Shown here piece after piece: positions 966 to 38,062 of a DNA stretch of 64,000 nt. The notes under the pieces are model-generated. The model searched no databases, was not told where the DNA came from, and worked only from the letters and a program-made list of their open reading frames with translations. Each line of letters begins with the position of its first letter. Position 1 is the first letter of the stretch. The translations under genes and the position numbers were made by a program. Source of the stretch: Pseudomonadota bacterium (GTDB lineage Bacteria; Desulfobacterota; Desulfobacteria; Desulfobacterales; JBDRRP01); the NCBI GenBank assembly GCA_043825735.1, contig JBDRRP010000015.1:1-64000 (forward strand). Reading direction: 5' to 3'.

Positions 966-1013
966 GGGTTCATCCCTTTCTTTTTTGAGTCTTCTCCCAT
1001 TTAATTGAAGAAA

Positions 1014-1050
1014 AGGGTTCGAGGGTTCAAGGGGTCAAGGGGTCAAGTGA
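1014..1050. repeat. Octamer tandem repeat arm (AGGGTTCR/AGGGGTCA x4 + AGTGA), solo left arm
   Basis: agggttcg agggttca aggggtca aggggtca agtga; same family as 27773-27810 and 37848-37885. Confidence 0.85.
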
Positions 1051-19068: not shown

Positions 19069-20952
19069 ATGTTTGATCCCAAAGAAAGCCATTCGGTCAC
19101 CCAGGATGGAGACCGACTCTACGCGAAGGCCCGCCAGGACGGGGTCGAAACCGTGTGGGAGCGCCACGAGGCGCAGCAGCCCCAGTGCGGATTCTGCGAC
19201 ATGGGGCTTTCGTGCCGCATCTGCATCATGGGGCCCTGCCGCGTCGATCCCTTCGGCGAGGGCCCCCAGACCGGCGTCTGCGGCGCCGATGCCGACATCA
19301 TCGTCGCCCGCAATCTGTGCCGGATGATCGCCGCCGGCGCCGCCTCGCACTCCGACCACGGCCGTGACCTGGTGGAAGTGCTGGCCGGTGTGGCCGACGG
19401 CAGTGCCATCGGTTACAAGATCCGCGACGAGGCCAAACTCAAGCGCCTCGCCGAGGAATACGGCGTGGCCATTGCGGACAAACCGGCGCTGGCCATCGCC
19501 GGCGAACTGGCCCAGGCCATGATGGAAGACTACGGCATGCGCCAAAAAACTATAAAAATGGTGGCCCGCGCCCCCAAGAAGCGTCGCGCGGTGTGGGAGA
19601 AGTTCAACCTCACCCCGCGGGGCATCGACCGCGAAACCTCGGAAATGATGCACCGCACCCACATGGGCGTGGACAACAACTGGCAGACCCTGCTGCTGCA
19701 AGGCATGCGAAACGCCCTCTCCGACGGCTGGGGCGGCTCCATGATCGCCACCGAAGTCTCTGACATCCTCTTCGGCGTTCCCACGCCGCGCCCGACCATG
19801 GTCAATTCGGGCGTTTTAAAGGAAGACCAGGTGAACATCGTGGTTCACGGCCACAACCCGGTGGTCTCTGATATGGTTTCCCAGGCCTGCATGTCGCCGG
19901 AATTGCTGGAACTGGCCAAAACCAAAGGCGCGGCCGGCATCAACCTGGTGGGTGTCTGCTGTACGGGCAACGAGCTGCTCATGCGCCGCGGCATCGCCAT
20001 GGCGGGCAACCATCTCATGACCGAGCTGATTCTCTCCACCGGCGCCGTAGACATGATGATCGTGGACTACCAGTGCATCATGCCGTCGCTGGGAAAAGTG
20101 GCCGGCAGCTACCACACCCGCCTGATCAGCACCAGTGACAAGGCCCGGTTCCCCGGCATGGAGCACCAGGAATTCCACCCGCACAATGCAGAGAAAAAGG
20201 GCGTGGCGGTGGTCCGCGCGGCGGTCGAGAACTTTGTGAACCGGGGCAAGGTAATGATACCGGTAGCGCCCCAGGAGGCTGTCGGCGGCTTCTCGGTGGA
20301 AACCATCGTGGGTGCTTTGGGCGGCACGCCGGCGCCCCTCATCGATGCCATCAAGGCCGGCAAAATCCGCGGCGCAGTGGGCATTGTGGGATGCAACAAC
20401 CCCAAAATCAAGCACGACTACGGACATGTGACGCTCACCCGGCGGCTCATCGAAAACGACATCCTGGTGGTGGATACCGGCTGCGTGGCCATCGCCAATG
20501 CCAAGGCCGGTTTCAAGGTACCCTCGGCCGCCGACATGGCCGGTCCGGGGTTGAAGGAGATCTGCAATGCCCTGGGCATCCCCCCGGTGCTGCACATGGG
20601 AAGCTGCGTGGACAATGTGCGCATCCTGGTGCTGGTGTCCGCTCTGGCCGACGCCCTGGGCGTGGATATCAGCGATCTTCCCGTGGCCGGTTCGGCGCCG
20701 GAGTGGTATTCGGAAAAGGCGGTGACCATCGCCACCTATTTCGTGGCCTCGGGCGTCACCACCCATCTGGGCCCCATGCCGCCCATCACCGGCAGCATGA
20801 ACGTGGTCGGTCTGCTCACATCGGGCCTCAAGGATGTGGTGGGCGCCACGTTCGCCGTGGAACCCGACCCGGAAAAGGCGGCCGTCTTACTGCGCCGGAC
20901 CATCGAGGACAAAAGAAAAGCGCTGGGGCTGGATGCGCGCACCGTGGCTTAG
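19069..20952 (+). CDS. cooS: Anaerobic Ni-Fe carbon monoxide dehydrogenase catalytic subunit
   Basis: CRICIMGPC, GVCGA, HSDH, VHGHNP, GVCCTGNE, DYQCIMP, VGCNN, TGC, HMGSCVDN, SEKA. Confidence 0.97.
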   Translation: MFDPKESHSVTQDGDRLYAKARQDGVETVWERHEAQQPQCGFCDMGLSCRICIMGPCRVDPFGEGPQTGVCGADADIIVARNLCRMIAAGAASHSDHGRDLVEVLAGVADGSAIGYKIRDEAKLKRLAEEYGVAIADKPALAIAGELAQAMMEDYGMRQKTIKMVARAPKKRRAVWEKFNLTPRGIDRETSEMMHRTHMGVDNNWQTLLLQGMRNALSDGWGGSMIATEVSDILFGVPTPRPTMVNSGVLKEDQVNIVVHGHNPVVSDMVSQACMSPELLELAKTKGAAGINLVGVCCTGNELLMRRGIAMAGNHLMTELILSTGAVDMMIVDYQCIMPSLGKVAGSYHTRLISTSDKARFPGMEHQEFHPHNAEKKGVAVVRAAVENFVNRGKVMIPVAPQEAVGGFSVETIVGALGGTPAPLIDAIKAGKIRGAVGIVGCNNPKIKHDYGHVTLTRRLIENDILVVDTGCVAIANAKAGFKVPSAADMAGPGLKEICNALGIPPVLHMGSCVDNVRILVLVSALADALGVDISDLPVAGSAPEWYSEKAVTIATYFVASGVTTHLGPMPPITGSMNVVGLLTSGLKDVVGATFAVEPDPEKAAVLLRRTIEDKRKALGLDARTVA

Positions 20953-23518: not shown

Positions 23519-25191
23519 CCTGGATTCTTGTGATTTGGACGCACCTCGCCGGTGATTTCAGGATCGTACTTTGATTTTGAGCAGACCAGTTATAAAATCT
23601 GTGGCGCTGATTGACATCGAGCAAACAGCTCCGGCAGCCGCAGGCTGTCAAAACAGACCTGGGTGACTTTCAAGACGATCTGGCCACTATGGCAGACAAT
23701 TTTACCGGCTATGTCGATCAATCGCCGGCGAACAGTGTTCGCGTAGGCACCGAGCGCAAGTACCGGCGCACTGACATCTTGCTTGAAGGCCTCTAAAAGA
23801 AAGTGACCCAGCAGCATCGTATAGTACCAGGCAGCATTGGCCTCAAACTGCTTAAATGGCAGCTGCTCATGGCCAAAATCTTTTAACGCCCGGTTGGCCA
23901 ACTCGTCACTGCCGCGTTCATGGTAGCAGGCCACAAGCCCATTGGCCGTCAGATAATGGCCAGCGCCGGCCTTTTCAAGCATCCAATCGATCGTCTGACC
24001 TTGGCCGATATTGGTAATGATAACCGTATCGGGGCGAAAGCCGGGAAGCAAATATTGATCGCCATCATGAACCAAACGGCAATAAATCGCTCGCCTGAAC
24101 CGGTTCCAGCTACCACGGCGGCATCCAAATTCTATATACTGCCATACGTCTTTTTTGCCGGACTCAAAACGCCTCCAGGCGGCCTGATCATAGTGATCGG
24201 CTATCTGCTTGGTGTCTTTGTAAATTTTGCCACCGCAGATAAATCCGATTTGCAGTGTCTCGCAGAGCCTGAAAATTTTCTGATCGAAAAATCCGCTGTC
24301 CATACGGATGACGATGGGAACATCCCATCGGTAGTTCTTCCGGATTTTTACGATCATATGCCGGATCATATTGAGCACCGTGTCACCGTGGTTGGAATGC
24401 TTGTGCCCGCTACGAAAGACCGCATCGACAATCATGCGGTTCCAGTTCATCTGCAAGGGCTGGAAGCCTTTCTTCTTTTTGTAGGTTGGCCGAACCCCTT
24501 CACGACAGTGGGCATCGTCATTATCCAAAACCATCGTATCTATGCCCAACTCGATAATCTCGGGCCGGGTGACCTGAAGGCGCCAGATGAACAGTCGCTG
24601 CAACAGGCGTCGAAACAAAAAACAACGCGCCCACGAAAAGGATTTGAAAAACCGCTTCATCTGATGGGAAGAGGCCATATGCTCGGGCGCGCTCTCAATG
24701 CTGCCGGCATAACCCTCATCGTGGCGAAGCTGATCAAAATAGGTCAGATGGCGACTACTGCCGTCGAGCATAAAGCACAGCATCTGCTTGAACAGTTCCG
24801 TGATGTCCAATCCCTTTCGGCTTTTGCGAATCGTGCCGAACCACCGGTCGAGCCAGCCAAAGAGTTCGATCTGGTGCAGGTAGGCCACAAACAACGACAA
24901 CCCCGCGCGTCCGGTCAATCGGTCGGCTGTCACTTCGATGCGCTGGATTTTCAGTTCCCTTTTACGGCTATCTTTGTTATGAACCTTCATAAAGTCCTCC
25001 ACCTTTTGGGTGCCGTGTTGCTTGTTAGCTTCTTGGCGGAATTTAGCAAGCATTATAACACGTTACCTGCAGGTGTGGGACTTTTTTTTGTTAAGAATCG
25101 CTCAGATTAGGGCCAATATTCTGCGGTTGGAGAGAATGCTTGGCTGGACAGCGTATAGTTTGCCACTATCGGTAATATTCCTGAATCACGG
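23519..25191 (-). mobile_element. IS1380-family insertion sequence
   Basis: Transposase inside; candidate imperfect ends CCGTGATTC (minus strand from 25191) and CCTGGATTC (plus strand from 23519); no matching TSD at these ends. Confidence 0.65.
23590..24990 (-). CDS. IS1380-family DDE transposase
   Basis: LTGRAGL, LGIDT, GFQPL, IRMDSGF, YHERGSDE..ALK, FEANAAW, RRRLIDIAGKIV; GGAGG RBS. Confidence 0.92.
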   Translation of the reverse strand: MKVHNKDSRKRELKIQRIEVTADRLTGRAGLSLFVAYLHQIELFGWLDRWFGTIRKSRKGLDITELFKQMLCFMLDGSSRHLTYFDQLRHDEGYAGSIESAPEHMASSHQMKRFFKSFSWARCFLFRRLLQRLFIWRLQVTRPEIIELGIDTMVLDNDDAHCREGVRPTYKKKKGFQPLQMNWNRMIVDAVFRSGHKHSNHGDTVLNMIRHMIVKIRKNYRWDVPIVIRMDSGFFDQKIFRLCETLQIGFICGGKIYKDTKQIADHYDQAAWRRFESGKKDVWQYIEFGCRRGSWNRFRRAIYCRLVHDGDQYLLPGFRPDTVIITNIGQGQTIDWMLEKAGAGHYLTANGLVACYHERGSDELANRALKDFGHEQLPFKQFEANAAWYYTMLLGHFLLEAFKQDVSAPVLALGAYANTVRRRLIDIAGKIVCHSGQIVLKVTQVCFDSLRLPELFARCQSAPQIL

Positions 25192-25869: not shown

Positions 25870-26948
25870 TGGTTTCCCTTCCTTTCAGGTGCGTCCCCTT
25901 TTCCTTTCAGTAATGCTTCGGGGTGGCGCCCCAGATAATCGGTCAGCACGGCCATCGCGCCGGCGGCCTTTTTTACCTCTGCAAGCGTCTCGTCGATTTG
26001 GTAGACAAGGGCCGAATCCTCGTCCGAAAGGTAGGACAAGTTGGTCAGCATCGATTCCGCCTGCTGGATGGCGCTGCGCGCAGCCGCCGCAGTCTCTCCG
26101 ATGTTCGCCAGCACCGGCGTCAGTCGGCTGTCCAGGCTGGCGACGGTTTTCCTGATCTCAGCGGCCGTATCATTGATTCCGGCTGCCATCGGGGGAATCT
26201 GTCCGTCTGTTGTCTTTACCAGGTGCCGGACATCGGCCAGTGCCGCCTCGAGCTCGCCCGACAAGCGCGCCACATGCTGGTCCAGGTTGACGGCCAGTTT
26301 CCGGTAGTCTTTCAGGGTGTCGTTGACGGTGGCCACCGCCGCGTGCAGACCGGGGTCATTGGCCAGTTTGTCGATGCCGTTGGCGGCATTTTTAATGGAA
26401 TCGATGATGCTCTGGAAATCGATCCCGTCAAGGGTCTTGGCCAGCGCGTCCATGTCCGACGGCAGCGTCGGCACTTCCTCGATATCGTCTTCAAGGGCCA
26501 TCAGCTTGACCGGTGTATCCGGGTAGAAGTCAAATGCAACCAGCAGTTGCCCGGTGACAAAACTCTGCAGTTCAAGTTTGGCGCGAAGGCCTTTGGCGAT
26601 CATGCCGTCGACGGCGTCATCTGTTGAGAGCTCTTTTTTGCGGGCGCCGGTATGCCCGCTGATTTTCAGCGAGCCCTCCGGCACGTCGATCATCACCTGC
26701 GTGAAAAACGATTTGTCTTTTTCACTATAAACCAGGTTGATCTGGGTGACCTTGCCCACCGGCACCCCTTTGACCTGAACCGGAGCCCCCACACTCAGAC
26801 CTTTCACCGAACCGGTAAAATACATGACATAACGATTCGACGCTTGAAACAGACCGGCGCCCCCGAAGGCCAGAATACCGATGACCACCAGTGCAATGGC
26901 GCCGACGATGAAGGCGCCGATCAAGGTTTTGTTAGTCTCTTTTTTCAT
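25866..26948 (-). CDS. MlaD/MCE-domain protein
   Basis: IGAFIV TM, SVKGLSVGAPVQVKGVPVGKV, long helical tail, PEALLKG. Confidence 0.9.
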   Translation of the reverse strand: MKKETNKTLIGAFIVGAIALVVIGILAFGGAGLFQASNRYVMYFTGSVKGLSVGAPVQVKGVPVGKVTQINLVYSEKDKSFFTQVMIDVPEGSLKISGHTGARKKELSTDDAVDGMIAKGLRAKLELQSFVTGQLLVAFDFYPDTPVKLMALEDDIEEVPTLPSDMDALAKTLDGIDFQSIIDSIKNAANGIDKLANDPGLHAAVATVNDTLKDYRKLAVNLDQHVARLSGELEAALADVRHLVKTTDGQIPPMAAGINDTAAEIRKTVASLDSRLTPVLANIGETAAAARSAIQQAESMLTNLSYLSDEDSALVYQIDETLAEVKKAAGAMAVLTDYLGRHPEALLKGKGDAPERKGNQ

Positions 26949-27742
26949 AAGCTCACATTTTCGGCACGTGGTTTGGCAGTATGCTCACCACGGGTCAGAA
27001 ATCGAATCACATTGTCATTGTCCGAGGTGGCCAGCATCACTTTCGGATCTCCGATGGCCGCCGCCGTGCGGGTGGTGTTGTCCAGAAAAACGGCATTGTT
27101 GGCAACGGCGAAAATGCTGGGGAGCTCGTGGGTGACGATCATCACGGTCGCCCCCAGGCTCCGGTTGATCTCGATGATCAGATCGTCCAGATTCCGGGCG
27201 CTCACCGGGTCCAGCCCGGCCGACGGTTCGTCGAAAAAAAGCACTTCGGGATCCAGGGCGATGGCCCGGGCCAGACCTGCGCGTTTTCTCATACCCCCGG
27301 AGATCTCGGACGGGTAGTAGCTCTCAAAGCCGCCCAGTCCCACCAGCGACAGTTTGAAGCGCACCATTTCGCGGATCTCGCTTTTTCCGAGATCGGTGTG
27401 CAGCGCCAGCGGAAGGCCGATGTTTTCCGCCAGGGTCAGTGAACTCCACAGGGCGCCGCTCTGGTACAACACCCCGAAACGCTGCATCATGCGCTCGCGC
27501 CCAGTGCCTCCCAGCGCCCAGAAATCGGTGTCGCCGTAATGAACGCTACCGGCCATGGGCGCCTTCAGGCCCACCAGAATCCGCATCAGGGTGCTTTTCC
27601 CACACCCGCTGCCGCCCATGATGGCAAAAACGTCTCCCCGCTGCACGGTGAAATCGAGATCGCGCATGAGGATATTATCGCCGTAACCCATGGTGAGGTT
27701 GGTAACTGTTATATGGGGGGGCTTAAGGTCTGCCTGGGTCAT
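26945..27742 (-). CDS. MlaF/Mkl-type ABC ATPase
   Basis: GGSGCGKST, ISGGMRKRAGLARA, FFDEPSAGLDP, VTH. Confidence 0.93.
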   Translation of the reverse strand: MTQADLKPPHITVTNLTMGYGDNILMRDLDFTVQRGDVFAIMGGSGCGKSTLMRILVGLKAPMAGSVHYGDTDFWALGGTGRERMMQRFGVLYQSGALWSSLTLAENIGLPLALHTDLGKSEIREMVRFKLSLVGLGGFESYYPSEISGGMRKRAGLARAIALDPEVLFFDEPSAGLDPVSARNLDDLIIEINRSLGATVMIVTHELPSIFAVANNAVFLDNTTRTAAAIGDPKVMLATSDNDNVIRFLTRGEHTAKPRAENVSL

Positions 27743-27772
27743 GTTTAAAGCCTGTGATGATACAAGTGCAAA

Positions 27773-28332
27773 AGGATTCAAGGATTCGAGGGGTCAAGGG
27801 TTCAAGTGAACACCTAAGAGCAACTCCAGCTTTCGCGGGTACCGGTCAGAATTGACTTACCTCTTGTTTTCAAGAGATTGGATTAATGCTTTGAGCATCC
27901 TTTCGACCTCCGCTAACGCATCTTTGCTGCCGGTCGAACTGTTTTCATCGATAAAGCCCAGATCGCCGGATAACATTAGCTGGGTTTCCAGCTCACACAG
28001 AGATCCATAGGCAATGTAAAGAGATCGGACGTAATCGGCTGTTGTCCGTCGCCCATAGCCTTCAGCAATGTTGGAAGGAATTGACACGGCAGATCTCCTG
28101 ATCTGCGAGGTCAAACCGTATTGTTCTTCCTTAGGAAAAGTCGCAGTTACTTTGTACACGGACACACAAAAGTCATAGGATTTCTGCCAGACTTTGAGTT
28201 CTTTGTAATTCTTAAGCATTTCCGTATCTCCCCAGATTCCTTATACCTTATCGCTTTTATCTTTTGCCCTTCCCCTTGAATCCTCGAATCCTTGTCGCTG
28301 TTAAGCCGTATAGGCGCAATCCTCGAATCCTT
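27773..28332 (-). mobile_element. Four-helix-bundle gene cassette bracketed by inverted octamer repeat arms
   Basis: Left arm aggattca aggattcg aggggtca agggttca agtgaa (27773-27810); right arm ttgaatcc tcgaatcc ttg[insert]aatcc tcgaatcc (28276-28330); interrupts the mlaE-mlaF junction. Confidence 0.65.
27857..28219 (-). CDS. Four helix bundle protein (23S rRNA IVP / bAvd-like family)
   Basis: YKELKVWQKS, FPKEEQYGLTSQIRRSAVSIPSNIAEG, IAYGSLCELETQL; lower GC than its neighbours. Confidence 0.95.
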   Translation of the reverse strand: MLKNYKELKVWQKSYDFCVSVYKVTATFPKEEQYGLTSQIRRSAVSIPSNIAEGYGRRTTADYVRSLYIAYGSLCELETQLMLSGDLGFIDENSSTGSKDALAEVERMLKALIQSLENKR

Positions 28333-28339
28333 TTTTGGG

Positions 28340-29473
28340 TCATATTCCCAAAATATTCGTCAATACGGCAAAAATCCCATCGGCCACCACGATGTAGACG
28401 ATGGCGATCACCACAGCCGATGTGGTGGCCTTGCCGACATCGGCCGCGCTGCGCCCGCAGCGCATCCCCTGCATGCAGCCGCAGACGGCCACGATGAGCC
28501 CGAAGAAAACGCTTTTGACCAGCCCCACATTGAAATGGGCCATCGTCAACGCCCCGCGGGTCTGATTGAGGTATTGCACGATCGAAATGTCAAAGGCCCC
28601 CACACCCACCACCATACCGCCCAGGAGCCCCATAAAATCGGCGTAGACGGTTAGCAGCGGCATCATCAGCACCAGGGCCACAACGCGGGGAAGCACCAGG
28701 TAGTCCATCGGCGACACCCCCAGGGTCTTCAAGGCATCGACTTCTTCGCTGACCTGCATCGTGCCGATGTTGGCGGCAAACGCCGCGCCGGTGCGCCCGG
28801 CCATAATGACGCCGGCCATCACGACACCCATCTCCCGGGCCATGCCGATACCCACCAAATCGGCGATGTAGATCTGGGCGCCGAACATCTTGAGTTGCAC
28901 GGCCCCCATAAAGGCCAGAATCAGCCCCACCAGCAGGCTGATGAGCGATACGATGGGCAGCGCCTGCCATCCACACTCCTGGATCACCGCCAGCACATCC
29001 GAGGCCCTAAACCGCGCCCGGCCTGTCATCAACCTCAAAAGAGACAGCGCCAGTTCACCGATGAAATCCAGGGTGTCTTTGACCGTGACAGCGGCGACAA
29101 TTCCGGCGCCACCCACGCGGGCCAGCACCGACGCACGGGTTGAATCGGCGGCGGTATTCTTCTTGCCTGGAACGGCACTGGCCAAAGACAATAGCACACT
29201 CACCCCGTCGGGGAGTCCTGCCGTATCCACGACAATCCCTCTGGCCGCGCAACCGGCGGCCACCTGGGAAACGAAGACCGCCAGAGCGCTGTCCCAACCG
29301 GCCACCTGGCGGCTGTCAAATTCTAAACGCCCGACGCCCGGATCGGCCAGCAGCGCCGCCGCCTGGGTCCGTGAAGGCACGGCGCGGCCGATCTGCCACT
29401 GTCCACCCAGCACGATCCTTAGAGTGGCGTCATCCGGGCGCTGCGTGCTGATTGTCGGATCCGGCATCGGCAA
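28340..29473 (-). CDS. MlaE-family permease with N-terminal STAS-like domain
   Basis: WDSA STAS motif, REMG, AGRTGAAFAA.IGTMQVSEEVDAL, VGKATTSAVV. Confidence 0.92.
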   Translation of the reverse strand: MPMPDPTISTQRPDDATLRIVLGGQWQIGRAVPSRTQAAALLADPGVGRLEFDSRQVAGWDSALAVFVSQVAAGCAARGIVVDTAGLPDGVSVLLSLASAVPGKKNTAADSTRASVLARVGGAGIVAAVTVKDTLDFIGELALSLLRLMTGRARFRASDVLAVIQECGWQALPIVSLISLLVGLILAFMGAVQLKMFGAQIYIADLVGIGMAREMGVVMAGVIMAGRTGAAFAANIGTMQVSEEVDALKTLGVSPMDYLVLPRVVALVLMMPLLTVYADFMGLLGGMVVGVGAFDISIVQYLNQTRGALTMAHFNVGLVKSVFFGLIVAVCGCMQGMRCGRSAADVGKATTSAVVIAIVYIVVADGIFAVLTNILGI

Positions 29474-37847: not shown

Positions 37848-38062
37848 AGGGTTCAAGGGTCCAAGGGGTCGAGGGGTCGAGGGTAAAAACCGCAACGGCT
37901 AAAAACCCTTGCAGTGGGACAGCCTTCTGTCGTTAAGTGGTAAAAAGGGCGATGGCTTCGAATAGCTGGACCGACTGCAAGGAATATTTCGCGGTGTTGT
38001 TTCACTTGGCACCTTGGCCCCTCGAACCCTTGTCGCTGTTAAGCCGTATAGGCGCAACCCTT
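37848..38062. repeat. Gene-less octamer inverted-arm element with 23-nt micro-insert (38033-38055)
   Basis: agggttca agggtcca aggggtcg aggggtcg ... cacttggcaccttggcccctcgaacccttg[insert]aaccc; internal ccttgcagt/actgcaagg stem. Confidence 0.8.

Follow-up and report, generated by a model that had tools for sequence, protein, structure and literature searches.

A PF05635 gene between inverted octamer arrays: an apparently undescribed intervening-sequence-like cassette at an mlaE-mlaF junction

The cassette and its host operon

The locus described here lies in an MCE (mla/pqi-like) operon, with an MlaE permease, an MlaF-like ATPase, an MlaD/PqiB-type protein and a PqiC-type lipoprotein, within a window of 64,000 nucleotides, i.e. 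the whole stretch of DNA that was analysed (Table 1). The names mlaE and mlaF are given to genes whose scores fall under the NCBIfam equivalog cut-offs. Between the two lies an intact ORF which belongs to the S23p/IVP family, with matches to PF05635 (137 bits, cut-off 33.8) and TIGR02436 (135 bits, cut-off 24). In agreement with an earlier, sequence-only reading of this DNA, the 120-aa gene is of lower GC content (45.2%) than mlaE (62.5%), mlaF (59.5%) and the genome as a whole (57.5%). The PF05635 family is very large and has members of solved structure, but we know of no function for it.

The gene is bracketed by two arms, described before as four octamers on one side and their reverse complements on the other, which was confirmed with the addition that one unit is split. 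On the mRNA, the 5' arm starts 9 nt past the mlaE stop codon and comprises two units at 28277-28292, one interrupted by an insert at 28295-28317 and a last one at 28324-28331, whereas the complementary octamers of the 3' arm occupy 27773-27804. The 23-nt insert, which resembles cyanobacterial small dispersed repeats, has variants in the arm of another family gene of the genome, on contig C151, whose repeat unit differs. From arm to arm the cassette measures 559 nt, and the best ungapped match between its arms is 22 nt long at 91%. In the predicted MFE fold of the junction RNA, the arms are paired through a core stem of ~20 bp with further pairs (z -4.13; none of 20 shuffles was equally good). 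The stem of ~30 bp proposed earlier therefore stands as regards the pairing of the arms, but the clean core is ~20-22 bp, so that ~30 bp requires bulges and the looping out of the insert. No Rfam match was obtained across the 64-kb window. The window also encodes an IS1380-family transposase (23590-25053), with no link to the arms, and the catalytic subunit of an anaerobic CO dehydrogenase (19069-20952).

Table 1. Features of the cassette, of its host junction and of related elements. Coordinates are those of the window unless a locus is named.
Feature	Position	Strand	Basis
PF05635/TIGR02436 (S23p/IVP family) four-helix-bundle gene, intact, 120 aa	27857..28219	-	ORF, profile search, model
MlaE-family permease, host gene upstream	28340..29473	-	profile search
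MlaF-like ABC ATPase, host gene downstream	26945..27742	-	profile search
mRNA 5' arm: four AGGRKTCR octamers, a 23-nt insert interrupting one of them	28277..28331	-	octamer pattern, arm alignment
mRNA 3' arm: four complementary octamers and an inner TTCACT motif shared across the family	27773..27810	-	octamer pattern
23-nt mini-insert within an octamer unit	28295..28317	.	31 genome copies, 26 of them at most 25 nt from a unit
8-bp repeat ATGACCCA, copy that includes the stop of mlaE (A-TGA), a candidate for a target duplication	28336..28343	-	junction comparison
8-bp repeat ATGACCCA, copy with the mlaF start codon	27735..27742	-	junction comparison
Entire insert as inferred (593 bp), lacking terminal repeats of the ISL3 type	27743..28335	-	8-mer copies and relatives' junctions
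Gene-less octamer arm pair without ISL3 ends	37848..38030	.	octamer pattern, relatives' junctions
Truncated gene-less MITE copy: ISL3-type end (989-1007) and four-unit single arm (1014-1045)	989..1045	.	end motif, octamer pattern
Intact ISL3-family element, 424-aa transposase	L172:169-1521 (G012:C602)		profile search, end match

Insertion at the mlaE-mlaF junction

Twenty-four loci were fetched from relatives, and both mlaE and mlaF were present in 16; the cassette gene was found between them in none of these 16, so that it is not a gene fixed in mla operons without arms. Among the eight closest mlaE-mlaF junctions, four are tight (L088, L090, L092 and L100) and four hold other repeats. At L092, the ortholog from relative G003, the mlaE stop and mlaF start overlap as ATGA, as a single copy of ATGACCCA would give, and at L094 the stop of mlaE is followed by another member of the family (43% identical), which has a heptamer array. 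Judged by this comparison, the cassette is a discrete unit inserted at the mlaE-mlaF junction, as had been proposed.

The two copies of ATGACCCA, at the mlaE stop and at the mlaF start, set the boundaries of a 593-bp insert. As a target duplication this repeat is suggestive only, since 1.4-1.7% of control junctions have one by chance and the pattern was noticed post hoc; its AT content is 50%, against a mean of 74% for the flanks of the ISL3-type elements described below. A general target duplication for cassettes without ISL3-type ends (hereafter end-less) was considered and rejected, repeats of at least 8 nt having been found at 4 of 21 against a null of 4.3% and, in an anchored test from which the mlaE-mlaF cassette was left out, at just 2 of 52 junctions. 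Five loci (L041, L045, L085, L135 and L140) were excluded from the duplication count as tandem duplications of the gene or flank; the family genes at L041, L045 and L085 have long direct repeats resembling tandem cassette duplications. Direct repeats of 10-30 nt flank the end-less cassettes at L026, L046, L050 and L021, and those at L026 and L021 begin at the ATG of the next gene.

One and the same junction may hold different repeat families in different genomes (L087, L089, L091, L093, L094, L107 and L109; L248-L253). The junctions hosting different families are mlaE-mlaF and two on contig C155, which suggests that shared junctions are hot spots, or that hairpins are selected there.

Octamer arrays and gene-less arm pairs

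Arrays of at least two octamer units number 138 in the genome, whereas local mononucleotide shuffling, done three times, gave 11, 4 and 10, and array pairs within 3 kb are in the F..R order in 45 cases against five in the R..F order. With genes and their orientation taken from a home-made gene finder, which called 5487 genes and missed the low-GC cassette gene, none of the 45 arm pairs overlaps a predicted gene, and 39 of the 43 that have neighbours lie between co-directional genes, four between convergent and none between divergent ones, whereas 542 of 2366 gaps are divergent in the background. The excess of arrays over the 4-11 of the shuffles and the same layout in independent genomes have already refuted a chance repeat pattern or an assembly artefact at the level of the family. 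Contigs of a possible source run do break at both arms of the mlaE-mlaF cassette, with no spanning piece among those listed, but the pieces 26500-27802 and 27781-28318 overlap and join the gene to mlaF, and chance or artefact is hardly credible as an explanation.

Forty-four of the arm pairs are gene-less, with loops of 24-270 nt; 21 have a common interior and 23 are unique. A first by-eye impression that the interiors are gene remnants was contradicted by nhmmer, which detected a remnant in 0 of 44. The unique pairs start a median of 11 nt past a stop codon and end 68 nt ahead of the next start, and a flank duplication of at least 8 nt was seen in 0 of 21 of them. Some arm pairs are old, judging from their persistence at the same junction across genomes: at one junction a pair is present in the source genome, G001 and G060 and not in G050, and another junction is empty in G060. 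At the 37848-38030 junction, G001 has a shorter-loop pair and G002 and G060 have no pair. Degenerate arm pairs missed by the strict pattern are also found in G001. Near single arms, the intergenic DNA of the genome is a mosaic of other tandem and palindromic families with units of 7-12 nt.

By the strict pattern, octamer arrays are present in 15 of 60 relatives. In a test that is partly circular, a cognate gene or fragment was found, among the matches listed, in 12 of these 15 and in one of the 45 others, and four array-rich genomes (G018, G006, G013 and G037) are without an intact cognate gene. In G018 the arrays are very long, with dozens of units and 236 pattern matches, and neither a close cognate gene nor a strict end motif was found there. 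In IMG/VR, nine viral-contig loci (L272-L280) match the arm pattern, without the gene and without ISL3 ends.

The placement of the unique pairs between stop and start codons, the retention of pairs at the same junction in the source genome, G001 and sometimes G060 (different family), and the recruitment of other repeat families to the same junctions in other genomes would be consistent with a domesticated host regulator, whereby one intact gene acts in trans on ~45 junction arm pairs and tunes mRNA processing or stability in a REP-like manner. We consider this very improbable, in view of the patchy distribution of the arrays among relatives, the array-rich genomes without an intact cognate gene, and the frequent stops in the family gene (four of seven copies in G042 and three of three in G020).

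The layout across the family

Eighty related loci were gathered, of which 75 had sufficient flank, and inverted arms (inverted-repeat score of at least 12) were found at 60 of these 75 compared with 3 of 154 control ORFs of the same loci; the enrichment of flanking repeats which the sequence-only reading proposed to look for is thus present in the family. The genome carries five family genes, all of them flanked, as seen by eye, by inverted tandem arrays of their own unit, and the arm units of the other four differ from the AGGRKTCR octamer. A gene plus inverted tandem arms is therefore the usual build of the family, and the inserted IVS-type cassette is real, above chance and widespread. Proteins at least 58% identical to the cassette protein nearly all come with the same octamer, spanning several phyla, and the repeat unit tracks the protein clade; since unit and protein travel together, however, clustering on a tree is no proof of recognition.

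Synonymous sites compared with the cassette gene are near saturation (pS 0.70-0.96). Omega is 0.04-0.13 in six of eight between-genome pairs, the remaining two being saturated, and is ~0.1 in copies bearing ISL3-type ends too. On these ratios, the family ORF is under purifying selection. The neighbour ORFs that were scanned (44 of 138, co-directional, L006-L040) reflect diverse contexts, with one phage integrase and none of MlaE, transposase or RT among the 44. By a crude longest-frame rule, the neighbours of family genes are co-directional in 50 of 68 cases upstream and 59 of 70 downstream. In end-less gene-bearing cassettes, the 5' arm lies a median of 3 nt after the stop codon, and between -15 and +25 nt in 30 of 36, some of these stops coming from the arm itself.

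ISL3-type ends and sister copies

Seven full cassette copies, 92-98% identical to one another, are present in the relative G042, with sharp common ends outside the arms, and five have a perfect 8-bp duplication, compared with 2 of 5000 random pairs. The ends of this cassette family match those of the intact ISL3 element of G012, whose transposase scores 233 bits with PF01610 and 326 bits with NF033550 (cut-off 180) and whose flanks are not a perfect duplication; G042 has a frameshifted ISL3 element with the same ends and a perfect 8-bp duplication. Going by their ends and flanks, the sister copies are mobile at the DNA level, bounded by ISL3-type ends and flanked by 8-bp duplications, with no transposase encoded inside. 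One stop codon is common to three of the G042 copies, which occupy different sites and have a separate duplication at each; ISL3 moves thus do not seem to require the ORF in cis. IS1 and IS1595 were also considered as donors of the ends and rejected, as no IS1 match was found in five genomes and the IS1595 loci are without the motif. Minimal elements of 31-32 bp, consisting of two fused ISL3-type ends only, were observed at L168:1490-1521 and L175:853-883.

The end motif was detected in 17 of the 60 relatives, and 14 of these are among the 15 that bear arrays. Of the gene-less pairs in the source genome, those with a common interior form a 154-nt family of 21 members, 20 of which have at least one end-like motif and 11 have both, against a background of 9% per end. 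Thirteen candidate end pairs were recognized in this family, four of which look spurious; in the nine credible pairs the flanks match at 8, 8, 7, 7, 6, 6, 5, 4 and 1 of 8 positions, whereas 1 of 156 cross-pairs reaches 7 or more. One ISL3-ended gene-less site of the source genome is empty in G001. By these ends, the 21 pairs are an ISL3-ended MITE family and not simple deletion copies of the cassette. The earlier suggestion that gene-less arm pairs are its non-autonomous copies was thus right in that such pairs exist, 44 in number, but neither their interiors nor the ends of the 21 bear out that descent.

At the mlaE-mlaF cassette, the 21-nt end motif is absent from both sides at up to 4 mismatches, and a looser hit, which extends over the start of mlaF, is no more than the background (9%) would give. 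No ISL3 element with the cassette-family ends was found in the 160 contigs of the source genome, where the sole ISL3 element found is broken, 36% identical and without these ends. Across the family, where this end motif was the only IS-type end looked for, 82 of 96 loci are without it, which, together with the end-less mlaE-mlaF copy, means that ISL3 explains a sub-lineage and not the family. The cassette had been called transposase-free; this holds only in part, as it does not fit the sister copies with their ISL3-type ends and 8-bp duplications.

A plain ISL3 passenger would be the core of a non-autonomous ISL3 derivative (a MITE or insertion cassette), whose ends were lost here and whose arms and protein are passive. 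Cargo-bearing non-autonomous IS derivatives are known as MIC or tIS. The duplications of the sister copies, the spread of one stop codon to three duplicated sites, the end motif of the array-bearing relatives and the 8-bp length of the repeat at mlaE-mlaF would all agree with such an origin, as would the nearest relatives of the cassette gene, which bear ends. However, in the careful tree of 29 rows (that of 79 rows being a quick one), the cassette gene is only sister to the end-bearing clade, with support 84/84 and a placement that is not firm, and the 5' arm is just 4-5 nt from the 8-bp repeat, so that a clean deletion of both ends would have been needed. The many family loci without this end motif, the other arm units of the four remaining family genes of the genome and an omega of ~0.1 even in end-bearing copies also argue against the passenger, which we regard as unlikely. 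Overall, one real route of spread is shown by the sister copies, and a second, end-independent route is possible. The mlaE-mlaF copy may have been delivered by ISL3 and have lost both ends later, or it may have inserted independently of such ends, with a duplication of the overlapped stop/start, and the data favour neither route.

Protein fold and relation to Avd

A model of the cassette protein, built on a 63-sequence alignment, has four helices and a pLDDT of 93. It superposes on Xcc0516 (2GSC), to which the protein is 42% identical, with a Z of 20.6 and an rmsd of 1.4 over 113 aligned residues, on BT_0352 with a Z of 17.2, and on Avd with Z scores of 15.9 (8UB7, rmsd 1.8) and 15.1, unrelated bundles reaching at most 12.9. 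Both sequence relatives with structures are five-chain entries. The protein scores below the cut-offs of both Avd models, NF033474 (32.6 bits, below 80) and PF22296 (30.7 bits, below 40). In the relation to Avd that had been pointed out before, it is thus the predicted fold that is shared, the cassette protein not being an Avd itself. No DGR reverse transcriptase lies beside the cassette, all seven PF00078 matches of the genome being on other contigs, and in our reading the RTs of the genome resemble those of group II introns.

The cassette protein is near neutral (pI 7.7, with 16 K+R and 15 D+E). In the DGR structure as described in bioRxiv 10.1101/2023.10.23.563531, a single stem-loop is in contact with each of the five protomers of Avd, and the bases flipped out of it lie between them. 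We infer that a pentameric ring would be well matched by arrays of some four units and part of a fifth and, by this analogy, that the Avd-fold cassette protein probably binds its own arms. The mlaE-mlaF locus and the genome may in this way tie a PF05635 protein to a definite nucleic-acid partner, and the five family genes with five units in one genome offer a ready 5 x 5 recognition matrix. Were sequence-specific recognition to hold, the family would be one of small repeat-reading RNA-binding rings, with a hint to the origin of the DGR Avd.

Behaviour at the RNA level

We favour, at a probability of about 0.55, the explanation that the cassette is a selfish or commensal element, built like the ORF-bearing IVSs of 23S rRNA and living at mRNA cistron junctions. 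The arms would pair in the operon transcript and return the mlaE stop next to the mlaF start, and the paired arms would offer a stem to RNase III, as shown for the Coxiella IVS; RNase III is encoded in the genome. Pairing of this kind would make insertion cheap, so that units could survive just past stop codons. The protein would be a pentamer of the Xcc0516/Avd type that binds its own arm RNA with about one unit per subunit, and such binding may control or protect the cassette message, which would explain the conserved unit despite saturated synonymous sites.

The arm duplex of the mRNA strand is the more stable one in just 43 of 75 loci (p 0.25), and the arms of the mlaE-mlaF cassette pair better antisense (-57.6 vs -51.1 kcal/mol). 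A G.U asymmetry reached p 0.049 in one of 16 uncorrected tests and is not significant. In the one RNA run searched, only short pieces from the arms of other organisms were found. In DNA run X1, joints that skip 457-466 nt were considered as excision and rejected: their sides are 20-23 nt long, and unrelated sequence lies between them wherever the letters are given, so that we read them as other arm pairs.

It is conceivable, albeit improbable, that the cassette is an RNA-mediated element, in which the hairpin-bounded RNA, once cut out, would be taken up by the Avd-like pentamer and copied into new junctions by a borrowed RT, producing duplications of variable length. The Avd fold (Z 15-16), the sense orientation and stop-codon proximity of the cassettes and the RT genes of the genome are compatible with this, as are the flanks of L050, L046 and L026, which are duplicated over 12, 14 and 30 nt, respectively, given that 1 of 1500 random pairs reaches 12 nt. 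It is made less likely by the absence of strand asymmetry, by the lack of RTs among the 44 scanned neighbours, with those of the genome on other contigs, and by duplications that are not enriched in the anchored test once the mlaE-mlaF cassette is left out, nor at the unique gene-less pairs.

More tentatively, and with more doubt than belief, a selfish cassette of the preferred kind may belong to a distinct transcript-level mobile class, in which the pentamer of each clade reads its own 7-8-nt tandem repeat, the cassette is taken out of the host mRNA or concealed there by its arms, and insertion takes place past stop codons without transposase ends, possibly via RNA and a borrowed RT, Avd being a domesticated offshoot. 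If so, rRNA IVSs, ISL3-borne copies and many unexplained short tandem repeats of bacteria would represent side lines or remnants of it.

Comparison with known systems

No description of arms around this gene family outside rRNA was found in the open-access literature, supplements aside, and the cassette is apparently of a kind not previously described. The closest likeness is to the IVSs of 23S rRNA, the origin and spread of which are presented as an old open question in PMC4990558. The IVS of Coxiella burnetii, in helix 45, is described there as a 444-nt element that has an S23p ORF preceded by heptamers and a 28-bp stem at which RNase III cuts (PMC4990558). The cassette has in common with it the protein family, an ORF in the loop of a stem, short tandem repeats ahead of the ORF and a similar size. 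It differs in lying between protein-coding cistrons and not in an rRNA gene, in its intact ORF with purifying selection across the family, in having tandem arrays in both arms and in the dozens of gene-less pairs. Excision of 23S rRNA IVSs is by RNase III, for which the stem of the cassette is a putative substrate.

A 187-nt ISL3-derived MITE with 8-nt repeats has been described in Microcystis (PMC11448079). The sister cassettes and the 21-member gene-less family are similar in their ISL3-matching ends and 8-bp duplications in AT-rich DNA; in contrast, the mlaE-mlaF copy and most family loci have no such ends, and the arms, which sit inside the ends, also exist alone. The REPIN-RAYT system, as outlined in PMC8049555, consists of paired inverted repeats of varying spacer length, which are scattered over extragenic DNA and persist across relatives, together with a cognate RAYT gene. 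The arm pairs likewise form inverted doublet hairpins in extragenic DNA with an associated cognate gene, but this gene encodes a non-enzymatic-looking helical bundle and not a Y1 transposase, and the units are tandem non-palindromic octamers. A RAYT was rejected as mobiliser, the eight Y1 matches of the genome lying at least 9.9 kb from arrays or on array-free contigs. Lastly, the cassette protein is predicted to share its fold with Avd (4DWL, 8UB7) and Xcc0516 (2GSC), at Z scores of 15-21, and is set apart from Avd by scores under the Avd cut-offs and by a locus with neither an RT nor a template/variable repeat adjoining.
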